Notes: generated by a model not told the origin, from the sequence alone. Numbered from the stretch's first letter, positions 1,145 to 14,441 are shown. The stretch: DNA of 64,000 bases from an uncultured Bacilli bacterium (GCA_934130545.1 CAKOYD010000004.1:16780-80779); one strand, 5' to 3'. Numbers and translations are program-made.

Positions 1145-1269
1145 ATAATCACCGCCATTCTATTATAAATATCTTCCTATCTAAATATTATCATAAACTA
1201 ATTTTATTCGCAATAAATAACATAAATAATTATCAAAAATAGTTACAGTTTAGTCAAATAATCGAGTAG

Positions 1270-1660
1270 AGAAAATTAAATAATATCCATTATATTTAAC
1301 TTGCCCCTCTCACACCACCATACGTACCGTTCGATATACGGAGGTTCAATTTATATTGCAGTATATACTTTTAAATAATGGGCTAATACACTAGGCCTTT
1401 TTGTTTTAATTTCCTTTTAAACTTCTGAATAGATTTAAGATGTAGCTTAGACTTTATTATACCTGTCTTAGTAGTATAGAAACCAAAACCTAAATATTTT
1501 ATTTGGTTAGGTCTGGTTATTTTACTTTTGGTTACATTGGCTTTTAAACCTAATTTCTTTTCTATAAATCTTGTTGTAGTTTCCATAACACGATTTGCCG
1601 CTTACTCCAATTTTACTACAATTATACAATCATCTGCATATCTTGTAAATATTTGAATAT
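1270..1660 (-). mobile_element. group II intron remnant (domain V-like hairpin plus truncated intron-encoded protein)
   Basis: GC-rich patch in AT-rich DNA. Minus strand 1344..1315 reads CCUCCGUAUAUCGAACGGUACGUAUGGUGG, resembling group II domain V (GAGCCGUAU...ACGUACGG, 2-nt AC bulge). The adjacent 67-aa ORF matches RT domain 7/X of intron maturases. Confidence 0.5.
1383..1586 (-). pseudogene. group II intron reverse transcriptase/maturase fragment (RT7-X region only)
   Basis: TRFIEKKLGLKANVTKSKI...KYLGFGF matches the RT-7 'FLGF' block of LtrA-like IEPs. In-frame stop 5 codons upstream of Met; RT0-6 absent. Confidence 0.55.
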
Positions 1661-1793: not shown

Positions 1794-2666
1794 CTAATTA
1801 ATATTTAATATATTTAATAATTTAGTTAAATATTCTTTGTCATTAAATTCATTAATTGCAAAACATTTTTTGCCCATGTCTTTAAAAGAAGCACCACACG
1901 AATATAATTTAGTTCTATCTAATATTATAAATCGATCGTGAAAAGAATCATTGTTTATAAATATTATGTTAGTGTATTGGCTTTCATATTTGTTTTTTAA
2001 TATTCCATCTATATTTTTAGATACTACTATAATCTCTTTATCAACTGTTCTTAATAAATCTAGCAATTCCTTCCCAGCATAATTATCTATTATAATTATT
2101 TGACTTTTTGATTTACCAAAAATATCTAAAAGTAACGAATAAGCGTCATACAATTCTCCCTCAAAAAAAATTTTATTTATTTCTTTTTTTTCATTAAATC
2201 TATTAAATGTATCTTCTAATTTCAAAATTCTATTCTCATGATTAATTAGCATTTCGCTGGTTAAAGTAGATTTCGCAAAATATTTTCTCATTTTAACAAA
2301 TGCATCTATTATTTGAATATTAACTCTAACAGCAATATCACTTTTTAAAAGCCCCGATAACATCATTATTCCTTGTTCAGTTAAAACATATGGCAAATAT
2401 TTTATATTGTATCCCCTTAAATTGTTGCTTTTGTTCAAGGTCGCAATTTGCGACCTTGAAGATATCATTTTAAATTCTTTCTCTGTCAATTGAAAACAAA
2501 ACGATTCAGGAAATCTGTTCATATTTCTTTTTACAACTTCATTTAATCTTTTCGTTTCTACTTGATAAAGCAGCGCAACATCTTTCGAAAACATCACTTG
2601 TGTTCCCCTAACTTCATAAATCATATCTTCAATCACAAAACATTCCTTCTCAATTACTTCTTTCAT
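1794..2666 (-). CDS. ORF6N-domain protein (KilA-N/antirepressor-like N-terminus)
   Basis: EVRGTQVMFSKDVALLYQVETKRLNEVVKRNMNRFPESFCFQLT...LRGYNIKYLPYVLTEQGIMMLS is the ORF6N signature. Start placed at MKEVIEKE (AGGAGG RBS 8 nt upstream) rather than the ORF-track Met at 2696. Confidence 0.6.
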   Translation of the reverse strand: MKEVIEKECFVIEDMIYEVRGTQVMFSKDVALLYQVETKRLNEVVKRNMNRFPESFCFQLTEKEFKMISSRSQIATLNKSNNLRGYNIKYLPYVLTEQGIMMLSGLLKSDIAVRVNIQIIDAFVKMRKYFAKSTLTSEMLINHENRILKLEDTFNRFNEKKEINKIFFEGELYDAYSLLLDIFGKSKSQIIIIDNYAGKELLDLLRTVDKEIIVVSKNIDGILKNKYESQYTNIIFINNDSFHDRFIILDRTKLYSCGASFKDMGKKCFAINEFNDKEYLTKLLNILNIN

Positions 2667-3005
2667 TACATATCCTCCTTTAATTAAAAGAGACACTTAT
2701 CAAACAAATAAGTATCTCCGCATCACATACATTTCCATCTTGCCTATAGAAATATATTTTATCGTTTAAATTGTCATACAAATATTAGGCAAATTAATTA
2801 GTATGTATTGATTATATACCCAAGCAACATAAAATACAACCATTTACATTTAAAATCATCAAAAAAAGAACCTAGATAAAAATCTAAGTCCTTATAATAT
2901 ACTTTATTTACTAGCCTTAATAGCAGCTTGTGACCCGTAAACCAAAGGAAACCTGTTTGGAGCAACTTATCACTCCACGGAGACTAAAATGACTTATTAT
3001 TACAA

Positions 3006-4970
3006 CTATATCTCTTTTTTTGCTATTTCATATTTGATGCATAATTCATCGTTAATTTTTATAATTATAAGCACAAATAGTTTTAAGAATCTAATATAGT
3101 TACTATGATGTACATTTTCATCACCAAAAGGTTGAGTTCCATGACCATACATATTTCTTAAATCCAATGAATTAACAAACTCAGATTTATTCAAACAGTA
3201 GTTTAAATAGTCTTGTTCTGGTTTTGAAAACAATGTACTTTCAAATCTTAAAACACCATTTTGTACTAAAACATCTATTTCTTTTCTTTGCCTTTCATTT
3301 AATTTCCAATAGCTAATTACATCATTCATATATAAATCATATAATATAGCTATTTGAATTCTATTTTTGATTTTTATATAACCATCTTCATCCACATAAA
3401 CATAATTATCATCTATTAGTTTTTGCAGTGATGGTTGTTCATATTTAACTATTTCTTCTTTTTTAATTTTACCTTTTATAAGTAGTTCATAGAAATTCTT
3501 ATAACTTTTCTTTTCCTTTTCAACATATGATAACATGCATTGATCTGAGAATAAATAATATGTTATTAAATCATATTCTCTTCCATTAGAATAAACATAT
3601 TTATTATTTAATAAACTTTTTACATTTTTAAAAAATAAATGTGTTGATGATATTTGTAATAATTCTGGATCTATTTTACCATCATCTACTAAATAATTAA
3701 ATTGTTTTAAGCAACTGTCGATTTCTGGCAATATTGTTCTACACTTTTCAAGATAATTTGAGTTTTTCGATGGAAGACTAATATTATAATTTTCAATATT
3801 AAATTCCCTAACTAAATAATCTCTAAAAAACCACTCGAGAATATTCTCAATTCGAACATTTAATTTTTCTAATTGAACACAGTAGCCATACATTTGCAAA
3901 TCCGCTAATTGATCTATTCTTTTAAATGCCGCCCCTATGGGATAATCTCTTTTAGAACGCATGAAAATGGTTCTTTCAAATATTCCCATCAAATTAGTTT
4001 TACTCACCAAATTCCATCTCATTTGGTTGTCGACATACTCAAATAAATATATAAAATTATTTAATAAAGTACTATTATCGTCTATATTTTGTTTTATCCA
4101 ATTTATATTATATGCAAATTCCCAGTTTTGTCCTTTAATATTAAACTCTACAGTTTCCTTTTGATTTTCTTTAAAAAGAACCAAAGTAGACATTTCTATA
4201 CCGGGATTATTTTTAAATAATTTCTTTTCTTGTTCTTCAACCTTCTTTTTAGCTAATAATTTCGTTTTATCATCTATATTTAACTCATTTGTTGCTTGCA
4301 AATTTACTATTAGCCTTAAATAATTTAAATTTGCAAATTCACTATTGATATAATTTTTAAGAATCTCATTTTTGTCTTCATCTGTTAAACTCTTAGGAAA
4401 AATTCTATGTGAATAATTTCCCAAATGATCTGTTTCATATTCATCAAGCAATAATACTGCACTATCAGTATATTTTAATAATTTTTCGCGTAAAATTTTA
4501 TCATATGTATGTACAATATTTTTATTATGCAAGGTGAAGTGCAAATAGGCATCATTTTTTTTGAGAATTTGAGAAAAAATATTGTCACTTATTCTTTCAT
4601 AAACTTTATACTTATCAATTACTTCAAAAAAATCTTCCATATAATTATGTTCAACATCTTTCAAATATTCTTCAATATTGTCATTATTTATCTTTGAACA
4701 AAACTTACCAATTATTTTATTAATTTTTTTTGACGATTCATTACAAATGTCTTTGATATCACCTTGTACGTTTTTTAAATACTCTGGATTAAATAATTTT
4801 AAAATATTATAAAATTCCAATATATCATTAATTGTATAGTACTTATCTGTAATATTTTTTGCAATATCTACAGCCTTATTAAAGTTATATGCTGTTGTCA
4901 TATCACCATTAGAATAAAATTTAACTCTTTCCACGATATCACCACTTTTCAAATACCTATTATACCACAA
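3006..4970 (-). CDS. large hypothetical protein (654 aa), orphan cargo next to serine recombinase
   Basis: Long uninterrupted ORF with coding-like composition. No motif I can assign (no P-loop, no clear nuclease or HTH signature). Confidence 0.5.
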   Translation of the reverse strand: MWYNRYLKSGDIVERVKFYSNGDMTTAYNFNKAVDIAKNITDKYYTINDILEFYNILKLFNPEYLKNVQGDIKDICNESSKKINKIIGKFCSKINNDNIEEYLKDVEHNYMEDFFEVIDKYKVYERISDNIFSQILKKNDAYLHFTLHNKNIVHTYDKILREKLLKYTDSAVLLLDEYETDHLGNYSHRIFPKSLTDEDKNEILKNYINSEFANLNYLRLIVNLQATNELNIDDKTKLLAKKKVEEQEKKLFKNNPGIEMSTLVLFKENQKETVEFNIKGQNWEFAYNINWIKQNIDDNSTLLNNFIYLFEYVDNQMRWNLVSKTNLMGIFERTIFMRSKRDYPIGAAFKRIDQLADLQMYGYCVQLEKLNVRIENILEWFFRDYLVREFNIENYNISLPSKNSNYLEKCRTILPEIDSCLKQFNYLVDDGKIDPELLQISSTHLFFKNVKSLLNNKYVYSNGREYDLITYYLFSDQCMLSYVEKEKKSYKNFYELLIKGKIKKEEIVKYEQPSLQKLIDDNYVYVDEDGYIKIKNRIQIAILYDLYMNDVISYWKLNERQRKEIDVLVQNGVLRFESTLFSKPEQDYLNYCLNKSEFVNSLDLRNMYGHGTQPFGDENVHHSNYIRFLKLFVLIIIKINDELCIKYEIAKKEI

Positions 4971-5024
4971 AGGTATTAATTTTAATTATGTAGCAACTAA
5001 ATTATCATATTTATTCGTGTTCTA

Positions 5025-6617
5025 TTAAAAACCATTTTTTTTACTTGTTCCATTTATTTCTAGTTTTATCGTTTCATTCATAAAGTTTAATTTCCATTCA
5101 AAATAATCTTTATGAATAATTATCCTTTCTACAAATTCTTCTATAATTTTATCATCAACACCATTATAGTTAATATCAAGTAATCTTCTAATACTCTTTT
5201 TTGCATTCTCAATTCTAACTTCTAATGGCTCAATTGATTCACATTTCTTTTCTAATTCTATAATTTCTATTTTATACTTCTCTATTCTACTAGATAACTT
5301 CTTTTGAAACATATCATATAAATTTATATCTATTGTTTTATCTAAATATGTATCTATAAGTCTATCAAATTTTTCATTTTCTTTTTCTATAAATTGTTTT
5401 AATTTATCAATTCTTTGTCTTATCTTTATCTCTGGATGAGCATCTATATCTACTCCTTTCATTAATCTTTCAAATAATTGCTTTCTATTATCAGGATTTT
5501 GAGTAAGATTCCTAAATATATATTCAGCCATGTATTGTAATTTCCATTCTTGGACTTCTTTCATGTTGCAACCATCTTTAAATCTACTCTTAAGTCTATT
5601 CTTCTTGTTATAACAAACATAGCAATATGTAGTATCATTTTTATTATTGTGATAAATCTTTCTATTAAAATTTGATCCACATTCACAAACTAATTTTTTA
5701 CTCCATATATTTCTTGGTACACCTGTTGCCTGTCTTTTTCCTACCTTAATAGGTTTAGAGTGACTATCCATTATTTGTTGAACTTTTTTAAAATCTTCTT
5801 TTGCTACAAGTGGTTCATGTCTGCCTTCAACAACTACTTGTTCAACTTCACCATAATTCATTTTGGGTTTTTGTTCTAAGTAATCAGGTATATAAGATTT
5901 TCTATAAACTATTGTACCTGAATAAAATGGATTCCTTAACACTCTGGAAACATATGAAAGACTCCAATTAGTTAATCCCATAGATGTATGAGCTTCCATT
6001 TTGGTTAGTTCATCAGCTACTTTAACTGTTCCTTTACCACTTAAATATTCAGAAAAAATAAATTTAACTATTTCAGCTTGTGCTTCATTAACTACCAAAT
6101 CCTTTCCTACTTTGTTATAACCAAGTATATTTCCTGTTCCATAGAACACTCCATTTTGAAATGATATCATTTGTCCTGCTTTAACTCTTTGAGATGTTTT
6201 CTTACTTTCGTTTTGGGCTAATGTAGCCATAAGAGTAAGTTTTAGTTCTCCATCTTCATCATTAAATGTCCAAATATTATCTTCAATAAAATATACTTCT
6301 ACTCCAATATTTTTTAGTTTTCTAGTTTCTTGCAATGTATCAACTGTATTTCTTGCAAATCTTGATACCTCACGAGTAACTATTAGATCAAATCTTCCTG
6401 TTTTTGCATCCTCCATCATTCTCATAAAGTTTTTTCTTTTCTTTGTAGATGTTCCTGTTATACCTTCATCTATATATCTATCATATAAAATCCAGTTAGG
6501 GTTCTTCTTTAGAATATCATCATAGTATTGAACTTGATTATCTAAAGCAGATAATTGAGTTTCATGTTCTGTTGAAACTCTAGCATATATTGCTACCTTT
6601 CTTTTCATTTCTCTCAC
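5025..6617 (-). CDS. large serine recombinase (resolvase/invertase N-domain + recombinase domain + zinc ribbon)
   Basis: N-terminal VAIYARVSTEHETQ...DLIVTREVSRFARN (catalytic Ser domain). C-terminal Cys cluster CECGSNF...CYVCYNKK. Size 530 aa. Confidence 0.9.
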   Translation of the reverse strand: MREMKRKVAIYARVSTEHETQLSALDNQVQYYDDILKKNPNWILYDRYIDEGITGTSTKKRKNFMRMMEDAKTGRFDLIVTREVSRFARNTVDTLQETRKLKNIGVEVYFIEDNIWTFNDEDGELKLTLMATLAQNESKKTSQRVKAGQMISFQNGVFYGTGNILGYNKVGKDLVVNEAQAEIVKFIFSEYLSGKGTVKVADELTKMEAHTSMGLTNWSLSYVSRVLRNPFYSGTIVYRKSYIPDYLEQKPKMNYGEVEQVVVEGRHEPLVAKEDFKKVQQIMDSHSKPIKVGKRQATGVPRNIWSKKLVCECGSNFNRKIYHNNKNDTTYCYVCYNKKNRLKSRFKDGCNMKEVQEWKLQYMAEYIFRNLTQNPDNRKQLFERLMKGVDIDAHPEIKIRQRIDKLKQFIEKENEKFDRLIDTYLDKTIDINLYDMFQKKLSSRIEKYKIEIIELEKKCESIEPLEVRIENAKKSIRRLLDINYNGVDDKIIEEFVERIIIHKDYFEWKLNFMNETIKLEINGTSKKNGF

Positions 6618-6716
6618 CTCTACAAAGAAACTACCATTTTTATTAAAAGAAGTTTAGGGTGCGATTTTGCACATAAGAAAAAGAAGTCTTTCAACTTCTT
6701 CATCGCACATTTGACA

Positions 6717-7157
6717 TTAATCAAAATCTTCTAAATCAATATTCCATAGACCTAACTTGCCATTAATTTCTTTATCAACATTAATCTTTTTAATATTTTT
6801 CAATTTCCATGCATATCCAGTCCTATATTTTGAACCATATGCAATATTATTCTCGTTAATTATCTTTTTGTTTAAATCATCATCTAATTCTAAACAATCT
6901 TCAATTTCAACTTCTGCTAATATTCTTCTTGAAGGAAATTCTAAATTTATATTTTTAAATTTTTTCATTTCTTCTTTGTCGATTCCAACTCCGGCATGAA
7001 TTAATACTTTTCCACGATAATTTATTTTCCAAGATCTAAACTCATATTTTTTTATACCCTCTGCAACTAATGTAGCCCATGGTTGTTTTAATGTTAATAC
7101 CTTCACTTTTATCACCAATAATATTTTATCATAAAACTTATAATTCTTATCATTCAA
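6717..7157 (-). CDS. ASCH-domain protein
   Basis: LTLKQPWATLVAEGIKKYEFRSW matches the ASCH 'QPWA...G.K..E.R' core. Confidence 0.6.
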   Translation of the reverse strand: MNDKNYKFYDKILLVIKVKVLTLKQPWATLVAEGIKKYEFRSWKINYRGKVLIHAGVGIDKEEMKKFKNINLEFPSRRILAEVEIEDCLELDDDLNKKIINENNIAYGSKYRTGYAWKLKNIKKINVDKEINGKLGLWNIDLEDFD

Positions 7158-7208
7158 ACAATAATATTCAATAAAAATATGATATAATAATTAATTAGGA
7201 GGGATAAG

Positions 7209-7985
7209 ATGCAAAGTGAGCAAGAAATAATTGAAGAATTACTTACAAAATTTACACAAATAGCTGCACAAGGCTGGATTGAAAGTCATAGACAACATAA
7301 TACTGGTATAGGTAAAACTTTTGAAGATTTATTAGAAAAAGTTGAAGATAATTTGGGCGAACCTGATTACAAAGGTATTGAGTTAAAAACTCATAGAAAA
7401 AATAGCAACTCTTTTACAACACTGTTTACTGCTTGTCCAGATGGACCTAATCCTAGTGAAAATACTAGATTAAGAGAAACATATGGTGAAACATATGCTG
7501 ATTCAGGTTTAAAAACTCTTCACACCTCAATTTTTGCAACTAGGAAAACAACATACTTTAACAAATTTAAATTTCAAATGGAAGTAAATTATGAGGATAA
7601 AAAGATTTACCTACTTGTCTTTGATATGAACGAAGAATTAATTGAGAAAATTACATTCTGGACATTTGATTCTTTAAATAAAAAATTAGAAAAGAAATTA
7701 AAAATATTAGCTTTAGTGGATAGTAAAAGCAAAAAGGAAAATGGAAAAGAACTATTTAAATATGACAAAATAACAATTTGCAAATTCAAAAATTTTGATA
7801 AATTTTTGAAAGCCGTAGTTGATGGAAAAATAATGTTAGATATTCGTATCGGTGTTTATAAAAGTGGTCAATATTTTGGTAAAACACATGATCATGGAAC
7901 TGGATTTAGAATTAAAGAATCCAACTTAGAATGCTTATATGATATATTTGAGCTTAGAAGTTTTGAAGAAGAAAAGGAAGATTGA
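7209..7985 (+). CDS. Type IIP restriction endonuclease, MvaI/BcnI family
   Basis: GIGKTFEDLLE...GIELKTHRKNSNSFTTLFTACP and C-terminal GKIMLDIRIG...THDHGTGFRIKESNLECLY align by pattern with BcnI (GQILERQFG...GEFELKGMRN...LTLFHKKP; VLVMDLCID...PHDRGPHLRIPISKLDKLY). Convergent with the MTase gene. Confidence 0.7.
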   Translation: MQSEQEIIEELLTKFTQIAAQGWIESHRQHNTGIGKTFEDLLEKVEDNLGEPDYKGIELKTHRKNSNSFTTLFTACPDGPNPSENTRLRETYGETYADSGLKTLHTSIFATRKTTYFNKFKFQMEVNYEDKKIYLLVFDMNEELIEKITFWTFDSLNKKLEKKLKILALVDSKSKKENGKELFKYDKITICKFKNFDKFLKAVVDGKIMLDIRIGVYKSGQYFGKTHDHGTGFRIKESNLECLYDIFELRSFEEEKED

Positions 7986-7987
7986 GT

Positions 7988-9223
7988 TTAATCTTCTTTT
8001 TTCATTATTACAATATATTCATGTGCCATAGTAGATACCGTTTTCCCAGTTTGATTTGTGGGTGATGTTTTCTTAGGTTGCCTTTTATTTGGAATATTTC
8101 TTACAATTGTTTCAATATGTTTAAACCCATTTTGTTCAAAAACGTATCTTGTAAATTCATCTGTTGGTAATTCTATATCACTTACACGACGATTTCCAAC
8201 AACATAAGCACAAATTCCATTTTTCTTAATTATTTTACTTACATTTTTCATTGATTTTTTATAATCTCTATAGAATGACCATATTTCCTTTGCTCGTTTT
8301 GGCCTTTCAGCTTCTATTGTCTTAATTATTTCATCGAGTTGGTCAAAACCAGTTTTTTCAATATCAGTAGTTTTTCCACCCATTAACTTTTTGTCCAACT
8401 TTCTAGCATCTTCAATTCCTAGCCACTCATTTGATAAAGTAGAAAACTGTCCATATGCAACAGTAGTACCACTATCTCCATATGGTGGAGAAGTTATTAC
8501 AATATCAACTGAATTTTCTTGAATTAAATCATTTGGTATTTCTTCTGAAGAATTAAAGTTATATACTTCGTGATTATATATTTTATTTTCTTTTTCATAC
8601 TCAATATATCCATCTATGTTTCTTTTTACTTTTTCTTTGAATAACTCTATGGTATTAGGATTCCATGTTTCAATTTTCTCTTTTGGGATTCTATATAATT
8701 TGAATTCCCCATTTCTTGTTAAAGATACTTCCCTTAATGTTTCACTAAATGGAACCAAGAAGAAATCTTTTTCATCATCATCTTTTATATTATCAATAAA
8801 GTATTTAATAATTAATAAATCATTTATTTGTTTATCTTTAAACCAAAAATCAATATTATTAATATTTGGCTTTTCTAAATCAATACTTTTATTTGAAGTA
8901 ATATACTTTTCAAAATTTTTAAATAATGACTTTATATTGTTTATATCAACCTTTGTAACTTTAGATTTAGATATTAGTCTTGCCAATGGATTTAAATCTG
9001 TACCGATACATTTTAATCCTACAAGTGACCCCTCAACAAGCGATGTACCAGTTCCACAATATGGATCAAATAGCACACTCATTTCTTTTGTTTTGTATCT
9101 ATTTAATATTTCTCTTGCAACTTGTGGAATCATCATAGCTGGATAAATGTGAAAAGAATGTGTATATTCTTTTGTGTCAGCTCCAATGAAATCCCAAAAA
9201 TTATCTTCATATTTTTTACCCAT
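7988..9223 (-). CDS. DNA methyltransferase (amino-MTase; SPPY motif suggests N4-cytosine, M.MvaI/M.BcnI-like)
   Basis: Motif I LFDPYCGTGTS; motif IV DIVITSPPY; N-terminal HSFHIYPAMMIP typical of this MTase group. Ends 2 nt from the REase stop. Confidence 0.85.
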   Translation of the reverse strand: MGKKYEDNFWDFIGADTKEYTHSFHIYPAMMIPQVAREILNRYKTKEMSVLFDPYCGTGTSLVEGSLVGLKCIGTDLNPLARLISKSKVTKVDINNIKSLFKNFEKYITSNKSIDLEKPNINNIDFWFKDKQINDLLIIKYFIDNIKDDDEKDFFLVPFSETLREVSLTRNGEFKLYRIPKEKIETWNPNTIELFKEKVKRNIDGYIEYEKENKIYNHEVYNFNSSEEIPNDLIQENSVDIVITSPPYGDSGTTVAYGQFSTLSNEWLGIEDARKLDKKLMGGKTTDIEKTGFDQLDEIIKTIEAERPKRAKEIWSFYRDYKKSMKNVSKIIKKNGICAYVVGNRRVSDIELPTDEFTRYVFEQNGFKHIETIVRNIPNKRQPKKTSPTNQTGKTVSTMAHEYIVIMKKED

Positions 9224-9325
9224 TCATTTCACCTCATTCTATTTAATTATACCATATAATTTGATATTTTATCCTATTAAAATAATTTTCTAAGGAATTA
9301 TGAACTAATCATATTCCCTAGGCTT

Positions 9326-9598
9326 TTATATATAAATATCTACCATAATATTTTCTTTTAGTTTTTTTGCTCGTTCTAATCCACATGATTGTAATCTCTT
9401 CCTATATTTTTTTATATCATCATTGGTAATCTCAATAGTAGTTAAATACATATCCTTTGACTCAATATTTTGATTATAGACATTATTACAATTGTTTTCT
9501 ATATCATAAATATCTTTTAAATAATTTAATTTCCATTCTACAGTAATTTTTACAACATCAGTTAGTTGCAAAACACTAATTTTAATGATAAAATACAT
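9326..9598 (-). CDS. hypothetical small protein upstream of methyltransferase gene
   Basis: 90-aa ORF co-directional with the MTase; no recognisable HTH. Could be a controller-like or spurious ORF. Confidence 0.3.
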   Translation of the reverse strand: MYFIIKISVLQLTDVVKITVEWKLNYLKDIYDIENNCNNVYNQNIESKDMYLTTIEITNDDIKKYRKRLQSCGLERAKKLKENIMVDIYI

Positions 9599-9664
9599 TA
9601 TATAATCCGATTAATTAACAATACTTATAATCAATTTATAGATTTTAAGAAAGAAGTGACACTT

Positions 9665-10153
9665 ATGCTAAACATAGAAAAAATATATAAAGAAACAAAA
9701 TATTTAGACGATTTATTTTCATTACAATTTGATATCAAATCTCCTGAAATTATAAAAAAATATAAACTTGAATTATTGGTAGAATTTGGAGAACTAGCTA
9801 ACGAAACAAGATGTTTTAAATTTTGGTCAATAAATCAAACTGGTAAAAAAAATCGTATATTAGAAGAATATATTGACTGTTTATTTATGATATTATATTT
9901 TTGTAACATTACAAATGTATCTTTAAGGGAAAATTTTTCTGCAACAAGTAACAAGGATATTATAGAAACATTTCTGACACTTTATAAATTAGGAAATGAT
10001 TTAGTCCAAAAGCTTGAAAAAGAAACTGTAAAAAAATTATTAGTAGAAATACTATATCTTTCACAATTGCTTGAATTCACATTAGAAGATTTAACAAATG
10101 AAACGAAACGAAAAAGCCAAATTATTCAAAAAAGATTAAAAAGCAATTATTAA
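9665..10153 (+). CDS. dimeric dUTPase-like / all-alpha NTP pyrophosphatase (dUTPase_2 family)
   Basis: ELLVEFGELANETRCFKFWS...ILEEYIDCLFMILYF matches the dimeric dUTPase core. Start moved to MLNIEKIY (9665) because the ORF-track start 9566 overlaps the upstream ORF. Confidence 0.55.
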   Translation: MLNIEKIYKETKYLDDLFSLQFDIKSPEIIKKYKLELLVEFGELANETRCFKFWSINQTGKKNRILEEYIDCLFMILYFCNITNVSLRENFSATSNKDIIETFLTLYKLGNDLVQKLEKETVKKLLVEILYLSQLLEFTLEDLTNETKRKSQIIQKRLKSNY

Positions 10154-10435
10154 ATATATCTTTTTTTGTTTTTTTATTTATCTGATACTAAAAGTCTAAG
10201 TTTGAATAAATATGCAAAGAAAAAGTTCAACTTATAAGTCAAACTTAAAAAATTAAATCTTGAACAATTATATTTTCTTCTTCATTTTTATTTAATTTAT
10301 TATATTCCATAATTGCATTTATTATATATTGTTCTACATATCTTTTATCTCTTTGTTTTATTTCGGGTGGCAAAACATTTTCTATCTTTTCTTTATTGAA
10401 AGATATTTTATCATTTTGATTTCCCTTCTTTTCGT

Positions 10436-11134
10436 TTAATATTCTCTCTCTAATATGTCAAAATCAATTTTTTTATCTTTTGCAATCTTTTTAATTTTAA
10501 TTGCTTGTGCATGACTAGGTGTTACCAAACAATACTCAATAACTCCTAATACCAGTTTTTGTTCTGCAAATCCTAAATAAGATAACTCTACAGCTGGCTT
10601 TATACCCATAGTAAGACCGTTTTTATTTGTTTTTAAAACTGTTTCATCAACTAATGTTAATAATTCAGGTATTAAATAAGTTAATCTTATATATCTTCTT
10701 ACCATTTCTCCAGATTCACTATTTGCAATTGCATCTCTTGACTTATGCAACCCAGTTGCACATGTTTTTTTCCCTTGATGTTTTATAGCATCCATTTTCA
10801 TTTTATAAGCAAATGCCTTTTCACTCGGCAAAACTCTTTCTCTATATATATTAGAATCCACCATAAATATTGTAGCTTCATCATCATTGAGTTCTTTTAA
10901 TACAACTTCTATTTCTTGTATTCCTAAAATTTCTAATGCTTTCTTTCTTCTATGACCAGATATTAATTCATATCTTCCATTTTCTTTTTCTCTTACCACC
11001 ATAGGATTCAACAATCCATTTTCCTTAATACTTTTAACCAATTCCATTAACGAACTATCATTATTTACTAAAAATGGATGTTCTTTAAAATTATCTATCT
11101 TGCTTAGATTAACTTTAATTAATTTATCATTCAT
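10436..11134 (-). CDS. ParB-like nuclease domain protein (ParB/Srx N-domain)
   Basis: LNPMVVREKENGRYELISGHRRKKALEILG is the ParB N-terminal box. Confidence 0.7.
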   Translation of the reverse strand: MNDKLIKVNLSKIDNFKEHPFLVNNDSSLMELVKSIKENGLLNPMVVREKENGRYELISGHRRKKALEILGIQEIEVVLKELNDDEATIFMVDSNIYRERVLPSEKAFAYKMKMDAIKHQGKKTCATGLHKSRDAIANSESGEMVRRYIRLTYLIPELLTLVDETVLKTNKNGLTMGIKPAVELSYLGFAEQKLVLGVIEYCLVTPSHAQAIKIKKIAKDKKIDFDILEREY

Positions 11135-11610
11135 AACCTATCTTCTCCTTTAATTTCATAATTTAATTTCCAGTTTAAATATTCCTCATAAGATATTTCG
11201 TGCTTTTCTCTTTTTATTTTTTGCTTTTTCCATTCTTGTAATGAATTAATTAATAATTTAATCTCTGGCTTATTAATATTTTTGACTTGTGATAAATCTA
11301 ATCTATAATTTGGAATATACTCTTCAAGCCAAAAGAACAAATAAATTAAATCTTCAGGATTTTTATAATCATATTTCTTTAATGAATTAAAATTAACTTT
11401 AAGAAATTTGGCAATATCTTTTACTCTATCATCCTTTGGATTTCTATCTCCTTTCTCATATCTTGTCATCGTTCTTCTCTTGCATTCGCCAGTTAATCCC
11501 AAGTGTTCTGAAATTTTGTCCTGTGATAAATGTCTCAATTCTCTTACAAAAGCTATTCTAGATCCTTGAGATAAATCCCTTAATTCAGGTTTTACATACA
11601 ACAATCGCAT
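11131..11610 (-). CDS. XRE-family HTH transcriptional regulator
   Basis: LRELRHLSQDKISEHLGLTGECKRRTMTRYEKGDRNP is an HTH_3 pattern. Overlaps the parB-like gene by 4 nt (operon). Confidence 0.7.
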   Translation of the reverse strand: MRLLYVKPELRDLSQGSRIAFVRELRHLSQDKISEHLGLTGECKRRTMTRYEKGDRNPKDDRVKDIAKFLKVNFNSLKKYDYKNPEDLIYLFFWLEEYIPNYRLDLSQVKNINKPEIKLLINSLQEWKKQKIKREKHEISYEEYLNWKLNYEIKGEDRL

Positions 11611-11804: not shown

Positions 11805-14441
11805 TTACTTTCTATCCCCAGATTTGATTGCGGCTTGAGCAGCAGCAAGTCTAGCAATAGGTACTCTAAATGGTGAGCAAGAAACATATGTTAATCCAAC
11901 ATTATGACAGAATTCAACACTAGATGGATCTCCACCATGTTCTCCACAAATACCAAGTTTAATATTTGGTCTTGTAGCCTTACCTTTTTCTACCGCCATT
12001 TTAACCAATTGACCAACACCTACTTGATCTAATTTAGCAAATGGATCTTGTTCATAAATTTTCTTTTCATAATATGCACCTAGGAACTTACCAGCATCAT
12101 CTCTAGAAAAACCAAATGTCATTTGTGTTAAGTCATTAGTACCAAATGAGAAGAATTCAGCTTCAGTAGCAATTGCATCAGCAGTTAATGCTGCTCTTGG
12201 TATTTCAATCATAGTACCGATATGATACTCCATATCAGAACCTTTTTCTTTCTTAACAAGTTCAGCAGTTTCTACTACTATATCTTTAACATATTTTAAT
12301 TCTTTAACTTCTCCAACAAGTGGAATCATAATTTCAGGAACAATATCGTATCCTTCTTCTTCATGAACTTCAATTGCAGCTTCCATTAAAGCACGAGTTT
12401 GCATTCTAGCAATTTCTGGATAAGTAACTGCTAAACGGCATCCTCTATGACCCATCATTGGGTTAAATTCATGTAATTCGTTGCATACATCAATAATATG
12501 TTCTACAGTCATTCCCATAGCTTCAGCAAGTTCTTTCATTTCAGCTTCTGTTTTAGGAATAAACTCATGAAGTGGTGGATCAATATAACGTACAGTCATA
12601 GGTAATCCTTTTAATTCCTTATACATTTCTTTAAAGTCGCCTTTTTGATATGGAATTAATAAACTTAGATATTTTTCTCTATCTTCAACTGTTTCAGATA
12701 AAATCATTCTTCTTAAGTTAAATATTCTTTCTTCATCAAAGAACATATGTTCTGTACGACAAAGTCCAATACCTTCAGCACCTAATTCAATAGCTTTTCT
12801 AGTATCTTTTGGTGTATCAGCATTAGTTCTAACACCTAACTTACGATATTTATCAGCCCATGCCATAACACGACCAAATTCACCTGCTATAGTAGCATCA
12901 ACTGTTGGAATAGCACCATCATAAATATTACCAGTAGTACCATCAATAGAAATTATATCTCCCTCATGATATACTTTACCAGCTAAAGTAAATTCTTTCT
13001 TAGCTTCATTCATTATAATATCGCCACAACCAGATACACAGCAAGTACCCATGCCACGAGCAACAACTGCTGCATGAGATGTCATACCACCACGTACTGT
13101 TAAAATACCTTGAGCAGCTTTCATACCTGTAATATCTTCAGGAGAAGTTTCAAGTCTAACTAATACAACTTTCTCTCCTTTACCACCGATACCATAAGTA
13201 GCTGCATCTTCAGCAGTAAATACAACTTTACCACAAGCAGCACCAGGAGAAGCACCCAAACCTTTTCCGACAGGCATAGCAGCCTTTAAAGCTTTACTAT
13301 CAAATTGAGGATGTAATAATGTATCTAAGTTTCTAGGATCAATCATTAATACAGCTTCTTCTTCAGTTCTCATTCCTTCATCAACTAAATCACAAGCAAT
13401 CTTTAAAGCAGCTTGAGCAGTTCTCTTACCATTTCTTGTTTGTAACATGTATAATTTACCATGTTCTACAGTAAATTCCATATCTTGCATATCACGATAA
13501 TGGTTCTCTAAAGTAGTACATACTTTTTTAAATTCTTCAAAAGCTTCAGGGAATTTATCAGCCATTTCAGATATCTTCATTGGAGTTCTAACACCAGCAA
13601 CAACATCTTCACCTTGCGCATTAGTTAAGAATTCACCAAATAATCCTTTTTCACCAGTAGCAGGGTCTCTTGTAAAGGCAACACCTGTACCACAATCATC
13701 TCCCATATTACCAAATGCCATTGATTGAACATTAACAGCAGTTCCCCAAGAATATGGAATATCATTATCTCTACGATAAACATTAGCACGTGGATTATCC
13801 CAAGATCTAAATACAGCCTTAATAGCACCCATTAATTGTTCTTTTGGATCATCAGGAAAATCTACACCAATTTTAATTTTATATTCTTCTTTAAACTCTC
13901 TAGCTAATTCTTTTAAATCATCAGCAGTAAGTTCAACATCTAACTTAACATTCTTTTCTTCTTTCATCTTATCAATTAATTGTTCAAAGTATTTCTTACC
14001 AACTTCCATAACAACATCAGAATACATTTGAATAAATCTACGATAACAATCCCAAGCCCATCTAGGATTATTAGACTTTTCTGCAAGAACATTAACTACT
14101 TCTTCATTTAAACCTAAATTAAGAATAGTATCCATCATACCAGGCATACTAGCTCTAGCACCACTTCTAACAGAAACTAATAATGGATTTTCTTTATCTC
14201 CAAATTTCTTTCCTGTAATCTCTTCCATCTTAACAATATACTCATTAATTTGGCTTTGAATTTCATCATTAATTGTACGTCCATCTTCATAGTACTTAGT
14301 ACAAGCTTCAGTAGTAATAGTAAATCCCTGTGGAACTGGCAAACCAATATTTGTCATTTCCGCTAAATTAGCACCTTTACCACCAAGAAGGTTTCTCATA
14401 TCAGCATTACCTTCTGTAAACAAATAAACATATTTTGTCAT
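11805..14441 (-). CDS. ppdK: pyruvate, phosphate dikinase
   Basis: 878 aa. N-terminal FTEGNADMRNLLGGKGANLAEM, phosphohistidine region GGMTSHAAVVARGMG, C-terminal PEP-utilising domain. Confidence 0.95.
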   Translation of the reverse strand: MTKYVYLFTEGNADMRNLLGGKGANLAEMTNIGLPVPQGFTITTEACTKYYEDGRTINDEIQSQINEYIVKMEEITGKKFGDKENPLLVSVRSGARASMPGMMDTILNLGLNEEVVNVLAEKSNNPRWAWDCYRRFIQMYSDVVMEVGKKYFEQLIDKMKEEKNVKLDVELTADDLKELAREFKEEYKIKIGVDFPDDPKEQLMGAIKAVFRSWDNPRANVYRRDNDIPYSWGTAVNVQSMAFGNMGDDCGTGVAFTRDPATGEKGLFGEFLTNAQGEDVVAGVRTPMKISEMADKFPEAFEEFKKVCTTLENHYRDMQDMEFTVEHGKLYMLQTRNGKRTAQAALKIACDLVDEGMRTEEEAVLMIDPRNLDTLLHPQFDSKALKAAMPVGKGLGASPGAACGKVVFTAEDAATYGIGGKGEKVVLVRLETSPEDITGMKAAQGILTVRGGMTSHAAVVARGMGTCCVSGCGDIIMNEAKKEFTLAGKVYHEGDIISIDGTTGNIYDGAIPTVDATIAGEFGRVMAWADKYRKLGVRTNADTPKDTRKAIELGAEGIGLCRTEHMFFDEERIFNLRRMILSETVEDREKYLSLLIPYQKGDFKEMYKELKGLPMTVRYIDPPLHEFIPKTEAEMKELAEAMGMTVEHIIDVCNELHEFNPMMGHRGCRLAVTYPEIARMQTRALMEAAIEVHEEEGYDIVPEIMIPLVGEVKELKYVKDIVVETAELVKKEKGSDMEYHIGTMIEIPRAALTADAIATEAEFFSFGTNDLTQMTFGFSRDDAGKFLGAYYEKKIYEQDPFAKLDQVGVGQLVKMAVEKGKATRPNIKLGICGEHGGDPSSVEFCHNVGLTYVSCSPFRVPIARLAAAQAAIKSGDRK

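Follow-up and report, generated by a model that had tools for sequence, protein, structure and literature searches.

We analyzed a 64,000-nucleotide stretch of DNA from an uncultured Bacilli bacterium (referred to as the window here), in which a long open reading frame lies beside a recombinase gene, and asked what this gene encodes and whether it is, as an initial annotation had proposed, single-gene defense or abortive infection (Abi) cargo of an integrative element. The frame is open on the minus strand from 3006 to 4970 and comprises 654 codons counted from a TTG at 4970. As that annotation had stated, the recombinase gene (5025..6617) lies directly upstream on the same strand, an ORF6N gene (1794..2696) is found on the other side, and the 654-aa protein contains neither a Walker A nor an SPPY/DPPY motif according to our pattern check.

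The protein belongs to the candidate defense family PDC-S56

The PADLOC model PDLC05039 (PDC-S56) matched the protein with an E value of 1.1e-228, aligning residues 14 to 650 with positions 6 to 645 of a 649-position profile, and the whole architecture is common, more distantly, to a second PDC-S56 model, PDLC05038. On this sequence match we assign the window protein to PDC-S56, a single-gene system from which it shows no difference. PADLOC candidates of the PDC type were nominated for their location within BREX, DISARM, or type I R-M systems (bioRxiv 10.1101/2024.01.29.577857, Payne et al.), and homologs of the window protein are likewise found inside type I R-M operons.

An exhaustive profile search retrieved 1,963 homolog clusters (50% identity), of which 988 had an E value of ≤1e-30; a word-indexed search returned 931 relatives. 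Nearly all family members from the exhaustive search are ∼640 aa long and align end to end. With a full-length family match and ∼2,000 homolog clusters, the protein is not the orphan for which it had been taken; the same clusters and their uniform ∼640-aa architecture bear out the view that the frame is clearly coding. The hosts are mostly Bacillota and also include Cloacimonadota, Mycoplasmatota, Sneathia, Treponemataceae, Muribaculaceae, and DPANN archaea, in a patchy distribution. Six plasmids carry family members. From viruses the family is essentially absent, or almost so: two loci or contigs in IMG/VR contain a PDC-S56 homolog, and a protein search of the GenBank phages (n = 50,697) returned none.

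Searches of Pfam, NCBIfam, and PHROGs with the full protein yielded nothing significant, PDB sequence and profile searches gave spurious matches only, and Pfam had no match for ten divergent relatives, plasmid and archaeal ones among them. At the nucleotide level, the initial 12 kb of the window matched neither plasmids nor phages. No mention of PDC-S56 and no experiment on any member was found in the literature or in the supplements to the PADLOC preprint.

Comparison with the family also bears on the start codon. The gene probably starts at GTG 4934 and not at TTG 4970, which would give a coding sequence at 3006..4934 (minus strand) and a product of 642 aa. We draw this from three features: the N termini of the family read M-x-R-V-K-F-Y-S, with GTG 4934 at the aligned position of the window gene; this GTG is preceded by a Shine-Dalgarno-like GGTGAT at 4938..4943; and residues 1 to 13 have pLDDT values below 50 in the AlphaFold2 (AF2) model (the 654-aa numbering is used throughout). 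By consensus match only, the region 4932..4967 (minus strand) may hold expression signals of the gene's own, namely, an extended −10-like TGGTATAAT at 4959..4967 followed by GGTGAT and the GTG start (4932..4943). The promoter scan did not list the TGGTATAAT site, as it lacks a −35 element.

A C-terminal motif resembles the HEPN RNase site

The most strongly conserved residues are located in a C-terminal module (residues 580 to 654; 3009..3233, minus strand), which we delimited by conservation and by weak matches to HEPN models, and this tail alone matches both PDC-S56 HMMs. They comprise E585, N594, R605-N606-x-Y608-x-H610, Y625, and K638. Across an alignment of 341 sequences, E585, N606, and H610 are the sole residues of the whole protein that are 100% invariant, and R605 is conserved in 99.4%. 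The alignment near the C terminus reads D-L-R-N-x-Y-x-H-G, with RN-x3-H in 258 of 260 full-length relatives and KN-x3-H in the remaining 2. In the window protein this segment is R605-N-M-Y-G-H610, encoded at 3141..3158 (minus strand), and it is the only R-x4-H of the protein. An earlier reading of the protein as devoid of motifs had overlooked both this R-N-x-x-x-H (R605..H610) and the invariant E585.

The active site of HEPN RNases is defined as Rx4-6H in which the arginine is followed by a polar residue (N/D/H), plus an acidic residue upstream (PMC3710099). R605-N606...H610 has this spacing and a polar residue at the corresponding position, and the invariant E585 would provide the acidic residue, lying 20 residues before the motif in the preceding helix, although its surroundings differ from the typical Ex3[KR]. 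When 40 C-terminal fragments were scanned against Pfam with a loose cutoff, the only families that recurred were HEPN families (DUF4209 in 6, HEPN_RiboL-PSP in 5, and HEPN_Apea in 2 fragments, with Csx1_HEPN found once), whereas 16 unrelated families were matched once each. In those fragments that were rescanned individually, the DUF4209, RiboL-PSP, and Apea matches all extended over the motif and its following helix, and the PADLOC model for Csx1/Csm6 CARF+HEPN proteins matched one C-terminal fragment with an E value of 6.7e-4. The similarity of the motif segment to DUF4209, RiboL-PSP, Apea, and Csx1/Csm6 is weak at the profile level: all of these matches, that to the PADLOC model included, fall short of the curated thresholds, the Pfam ones scoring 13 to 18 bits against gathering scores of 22 to 28 (DUF4209, 15 versus 22; RiboL-PSP, 17.5 versus 28; Apea, 13 versus 24 bits).

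The family also resembles known HEPN RNases of Abi and other defense systems (AbiD/F-Abi2, the C-terminal HEPN of AbiA, ApeA, RiboL-PSP, DUF4209/C6orf70, and HEC-08) in three respects: a conserved R-N-x3-H near the C terminus with an upstream Glu, a large noncatalytic N-terminal region, and genes that are found within R-M operons as well as on mobile elements. DUF4209 in particular is an HEPN family that occurs in R-M operons (PMC3710099). Taken at the level of sequence, these likenesses make it plausible that the C-terminal module is an HEPN-like RNase active site and suggest that the PDC-S56 protein probably works like an HEPN RNase; we stop short of classing it as an established HEPN member. 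A reading of the conserved blocks, by eye, as PD-(D/E)xK or HNH nucleases was dropped, the regions being helical and no model supporting either family.

Predicted structure of the PDC-S56 protein

The full-length AF2 model has a pLDDT of 82 and a pTM of 0.72 and consists, in order, of an N-terminal helical domain, a small sheet (residues 261 to 288), a second helical domain, a region of helices and hairpins (∼458 to 580), and three terminal helices that carry the motif. The N-terminal and middle regions (residues ∼14 to 508; 3447..4931, minus strand) thus comprise two helical domains around a three-stranded sheet, with no relative detected for this part of the protein. We propose that it is the sensor or regulatory part. 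The invariant blocks of the second helical domain are NLNYL, TLLNNFIYLF, EWFF..YL..EF, and LEKC.

The initial annotation had recommended a sensitive profile search and a structure comparison. Foldseek with the full model against the PDB found nothing of note, its best hit having an E value of 0.04 and covering helical repeats only. No similarity to the HEPN fold was detected in the fold searches, and the sole fold-level likeness is to winged-helix DNA/RNA-binding domains, from which a winged-helix-like subdomain is likely present in the model at residues ∼509 to 577 (3240..3446, minus strand). This subdomain is followed by three helices, versus four in the canonical HEPN core. Three helices would not suffice for an HEPN core that stands by itself, which other helices or a second chain would have to complete. 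Around the motif, the isolated domain model has its lowest pLDDT values (62 to 69).

Two alternatives to an HEPN-like RNase arise from these data. A defense effector with a different chemistry, e.g., another nuclease or an NAD- or nucleotide-targeting activity located in the middle domain, would account for the many invariant polar residues of that domain (D314, R318, E332, E375, E408, and K409), to which no fold can be assigned, and would accommodate an HEPN assignment that is built from a motif and subthreshold matches alone. However, all three fully invariant residues are in the C-terminal module, and no other enzyme family model gave even a weak recurrent match, so that we regard a non-HEPN effector as unlikely. 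The winged-helix likeness, together with the undetected HEPN fold, could instead point to a nucleic acid-binding protein that has no nuclease activity, e.g., a regulator or a factor that assists recombination or R-M, in which the R..H motif serves binding. We find this quite unlikely: the absence of any variation at E585, N606, and H610 among 341 divergent sequences is what a catalytic site would show, a regulator of 640 aa would be a large one, there is no consistent partner operon to regulate, and the tight linkage to a recombinase is restricted to one clade. An HEPN-like RNase remains the reading that we carry forward.

The gene is cargo of a serine recombinase island in ppdK

The 530-aa large serine recombinase encoded upstream (5025..6617, minus strand) matches Pfam Resolvase (E value of 2.8e-28), Recombinase (1.7e-21), and Zn_ribbon_recom, and we presume that it is the integrase of an island. 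It is coinherited with the PDC-S56 gene in the related loci L004 to L010. In a blastn comparison, the DNA common to close relatives is restricted to about 2913..6718 of the window, and the flanks differ each time. The common DNA contains the recombinase gene with ∼100 bp upstream of it and the PDC-S56 gene with ∼90 bp past its stop codon, at nucleotide identities of 97% (L004), 90% (L009), and 80 to 81% (L005/L008 and L010). The left edge of this unit, upstream of the recombinase gene, was located by alignment to 6672..6718 (minus strand; blastn boundaries at 6700/6718), where the relatives have a common sequence and a hairpin resembling a terminator (AAGAAGT..ACTTCTT, with a run of T behind it). 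The right end, defined by alignment, translation, and a pattern search, is a conserved ∼80-bp segment (2917..2995, minus strand) that closes in the 14-bp repeat CAAGCTGCTATTAA (2917..2930).

About 76 bp past the PDC-S56 stop codon, the translated sequence reads ...YGSQAAIKASK, followed by a stop, a copy of the 3′ end of ppdK. The ppdK gene itself is at 11805..14441, with a PPDK C terminus of ...AAQAAIKSGDRK before the stop, and its last codons contain the other copy of the repeat, CAAGCCGCAATCAA (11824..11837, minus strand), which is the left boundary of the island. The 14-mer CAAGCNGCNATHAA occurs exactly at 2917..2930 and 11824..11837 and nowhere else in the 64-kb window (0.38 occurrences expected at the one-mismatch setting). 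From these two exact copies, the island spans ∼8.9 kb and is sited in the 3′ end of ppdK between direct repeats, and the recombinase and PDC-S56 genes form a discrete 3.8-kb module at its right end. The same arrangement at the ppdK 3′ end is present in L005. With a recombinase gene, repeat-bounded edges at a conserved target, and a module found in different contexts, the locus has the features of an integrative element, and its sequence looks as if the large serine recombinase had integrated it site specifically, with the ppdK reading frame preserved. Neither excision nor a circular form was observed, and an empty ppdK site was not seen, the island being present in 11 of 11 contigs that encode an identical PPDK.

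Between the module and ppdK, the island carries variable cargo on both strands (6717..11610), which we annotated by Pfam- and PADLOC-type profile matches: ASCH (6717..7157, minus), an MvaI/BcnI REase (7209..7985, plus; E value of 4e-58), a 411-aa type II MTase (7988..9223, minus; PADLOC MTase_II, E value of 6e-130), dUTPase_2 (9566..10153, plus), a ParB-like protein (10436..11134, minus), and an HTH regulator (11131..11610, minus). The interval 7209..9223 is a complete type II R-M pair flanked by the ASCH and dUTPase_2 genes. In L004 a type IIG R-M enzyme and an MTase take the place of this cargo, and in L005 to L008 the interval from ppdK to the recombinase gene is almost empty, leaving PDC-S56 as nearly the sole cargo. 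The island also varies within one population: its ParB-like gene encodes 298 aa in the contig L091 (6296..7192) and 232 aa in the window (10436..11134), although both contigs encode an identical PPDK.

One related locus, L010, contains a second, decayed copy of the element (L010b, 5300..7726) with a remnant of the recombinase (176 aa). Its att core and ∼80-bp right end are those of the intact element, so that the right end is kept even where the cargo differs. In the slot of the PDC-S56 gene, this copy encodes a 427-aa ABC-type ATPase that matches the AriA, GajA, Old, and AbiLi models. That a defense-type gene occupies the same slot is good circumstantial evidence for a defense role of PDC-S56. 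The outer flank of the decayed copy matches 2850..2916 of the window.

We also noted a hairpin in the right end (2959..2976, minus strand) whose pairing, judged by eye, is apparently kept despite changes on both sides. Its arms read GGAGT..GCTCC in the window and GAACG..CGTTC in L005 and L010b, and the homologous positions are found in L004 and L009 as well. The hairpin may serve as a site for the recombinase or as a terminator.

SCC-type islands are mobilized by the large serine recombinases Ccr and integrate into the 3′ end of rlmH/orfX between short direct repeats. The island described here shares with them a large serine recombinase, an insertion in the 3′ end of a conserved housekeeping gene that keeps its frame, repeats of ∼14 bp, and a modular, exchangeable cargo. 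It differs in its target, ppdK, in having a single recombinase gene, and in carrying defense-type cargo (R-M, PDC-S56, and ABC ATPase) rather than resistance genes.

Distant homologs have no conserved partner gene

To place the module in the context of the whole family, we surveyed the neighborhood of PDC-S56 homologs in 80 genomes (±10 kb), and no gene cluster was consistently found beside them. The 140 immediate neighbors are spread over 137 Pfam families. The most common neighbors are tyrosine integrases (11 loci), large serine recombinases (9), generic ABC ATPases (9), HsdM (8), and IS3 transposases (5). At one locus (L070), the PDC-S56 gene is inserted between hsdS and hsdR, with gaps of 3 bp and 18 bp, respectively, and three further loci (L077, L050, and L053) show a similar embedding in type I R-M systems. 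We conclude that the gene is autonomous and mobile and that its association with R-M systems is a recurrent one. The initial annotation had suggested that co-occurrence with integrases and defense islands be checked; integrases and R-M operons do occur near homologs, but an R-M-type neighbor cluster was found at only 13 of the 80 loci, a raw count that would correspond to a modest enrichment in defense islands.

A recombinase gene is directly upstream only in relatives of at least 80% identity, one case of a plasmid resolvase apart. We considered the recombinase as an obligatory partner and rejected this idea, given that the adjacency is confined to these relatives and that no neighbor is conserved. 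On the Enterococcus hirae plasmid pHDC14-2.69K (L003, 7245..10702), a homolog of 25% identity is located 34 bp downstream of the gene for a 203-aa serine recombinase; it adjoins a gene for a TIR domain protein, and the plasmid region is rich in resolvase genes. In three Clostridia loci (L023, L026, and L027, in the last at 11950..12688), the PDC-S56 gene is followed on the same strand, after a gap of 3 to 4 bp, by an ORF of ∼245 aa, which may be a lineage-specific partner gene.

These contexts also bear on the idea that the gene stabilizes its element in an addiction-like manner or serves the island in another selfish way, e.g., as a toxic nuclease that penalizes element loss: strict inheritance with the recombinase as a 3.8-kb unit in the close clade, its place as near-sole cargo in L005 to L008, and the frequent role of HEPN-type proteins as toxins of toxin-antitoxin pairs (PMC3710099) would fit, but no small partner or antitoxin ORF occurs in any context, most distant homologs have no recombinase nearby, several lie inside type I R-M operons, and a defense-type ATPase fills the slot in the sister element, which together make stabilization improbable.

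Proposed function

Four independent lines support the gene as candidate single-gene defense or Abi cargo of an integrative element, as had initially been suggested. The protein is a full-length member of a PADLOC candidate single-gene system; the gene shares a discrete mobile island, which repeats of the ppdK 3′ end delimit, with a type II R-M system; a sister element has a defense-type ABC ATPase in the same slot; and distant homologs, which have no conserved partner, are found near integrases or inside type I R-M operons. A defense role of some kind is thus likely. For the more demanding statement that PDC-S56 is, as a whole, a candidate single-polypeptide antiphage (Abi-type) effector with an HEPN-like RNase mechanism, we see somewhat better than an even chance.

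We infer the following mechanism, in which sensing, dimerization, RNase activity, and the antiphage phenotype are all predicted features. The ∼500-residue helical N-terminal and middle region would act as sensor and autoinhibitor, the winged-helix-like subdomain would bind nucleic acid, and the C-terminal module would form an HEPN-like, metal-independent RNase site from E585, R605, N606, and H610. As each chain has one R-x4-H, two chains would probably be needed and would together form the RNase site, as in other HEPN RNases. Upon infection, host and/or phage RNA would be cut and phage growth stopped. In the locus studied here, the gene is the fixed cargo of the 3.8-kb serine recombinase module.

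More tentatively, PDC-S56 could represent a structurally atypical new branch of HEPN RNases, in which the three-helix tail is completed by helices of the ∼500-residue sensor or by dimerization. This branch would act as a one-protein Abi system and travel as the fixed cargo of a minimal 3.8-kb cassette that targets ppdK and swaps PDC-S56 for an Old/AriA-like ATPase. This combination is possible, with the odds somewhat against it; if it holds, the cassette would be a simple natural shuttle for single-gene immunity.

The idea of a defense role for PDC-S56 is not new, the family being already part of a public defense database, and because this idea has been cataloged, the advance made here is incremental and not conceptual. 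The new elements are the proposed active site, the revised start codon, the likely winged-helix-like subdomain, and the description of how a ppdK-targeting serine recombinase island with exchangeable cargo is built. If confirmed, the proposal would assign a function and a mechanism to a family of ∼2,000 clusters for which Pfam, NCBIfam, and PHROGs have no model, and it would supply a PADLOC candidate with a testable active site (E585, R605, and H610). The 3.8-kb module of recombinase and cargo, with its ends mapped in ppdK, offers a compact natural system for the shuttling and exchange of single defense genes among gut Bacillota.

Features flanking the island

Beyond the right repeat of the island, a group II intron remnant had been reported. 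The region 1261..1346 (minus strand) matches the group II intron domain V/VI model of Rfam (RF00029) over its full length and is a plausible 3′ remnant, although the match is below threshold at 25.6 bits versus a gathering score of 40 (E value of 0.036). It is located just downstream of a 67-aa ORF (1383..1586, minus strand), which looks RT-like by eye only and had no match in Pfam. Together, the RF00029 match and this ORF are consistent with the decayed 3′ end of an intron.

The ORF6N protein (1794..2696, minus strand) is encoded just outside the right repeat and matches another PADLOC candidate, PDC-S05, with an E value of 1e-84. ORF6N-type ORFs also flank the PDC-S56 gene in Sneathia (L071) and Citroniella (L080).
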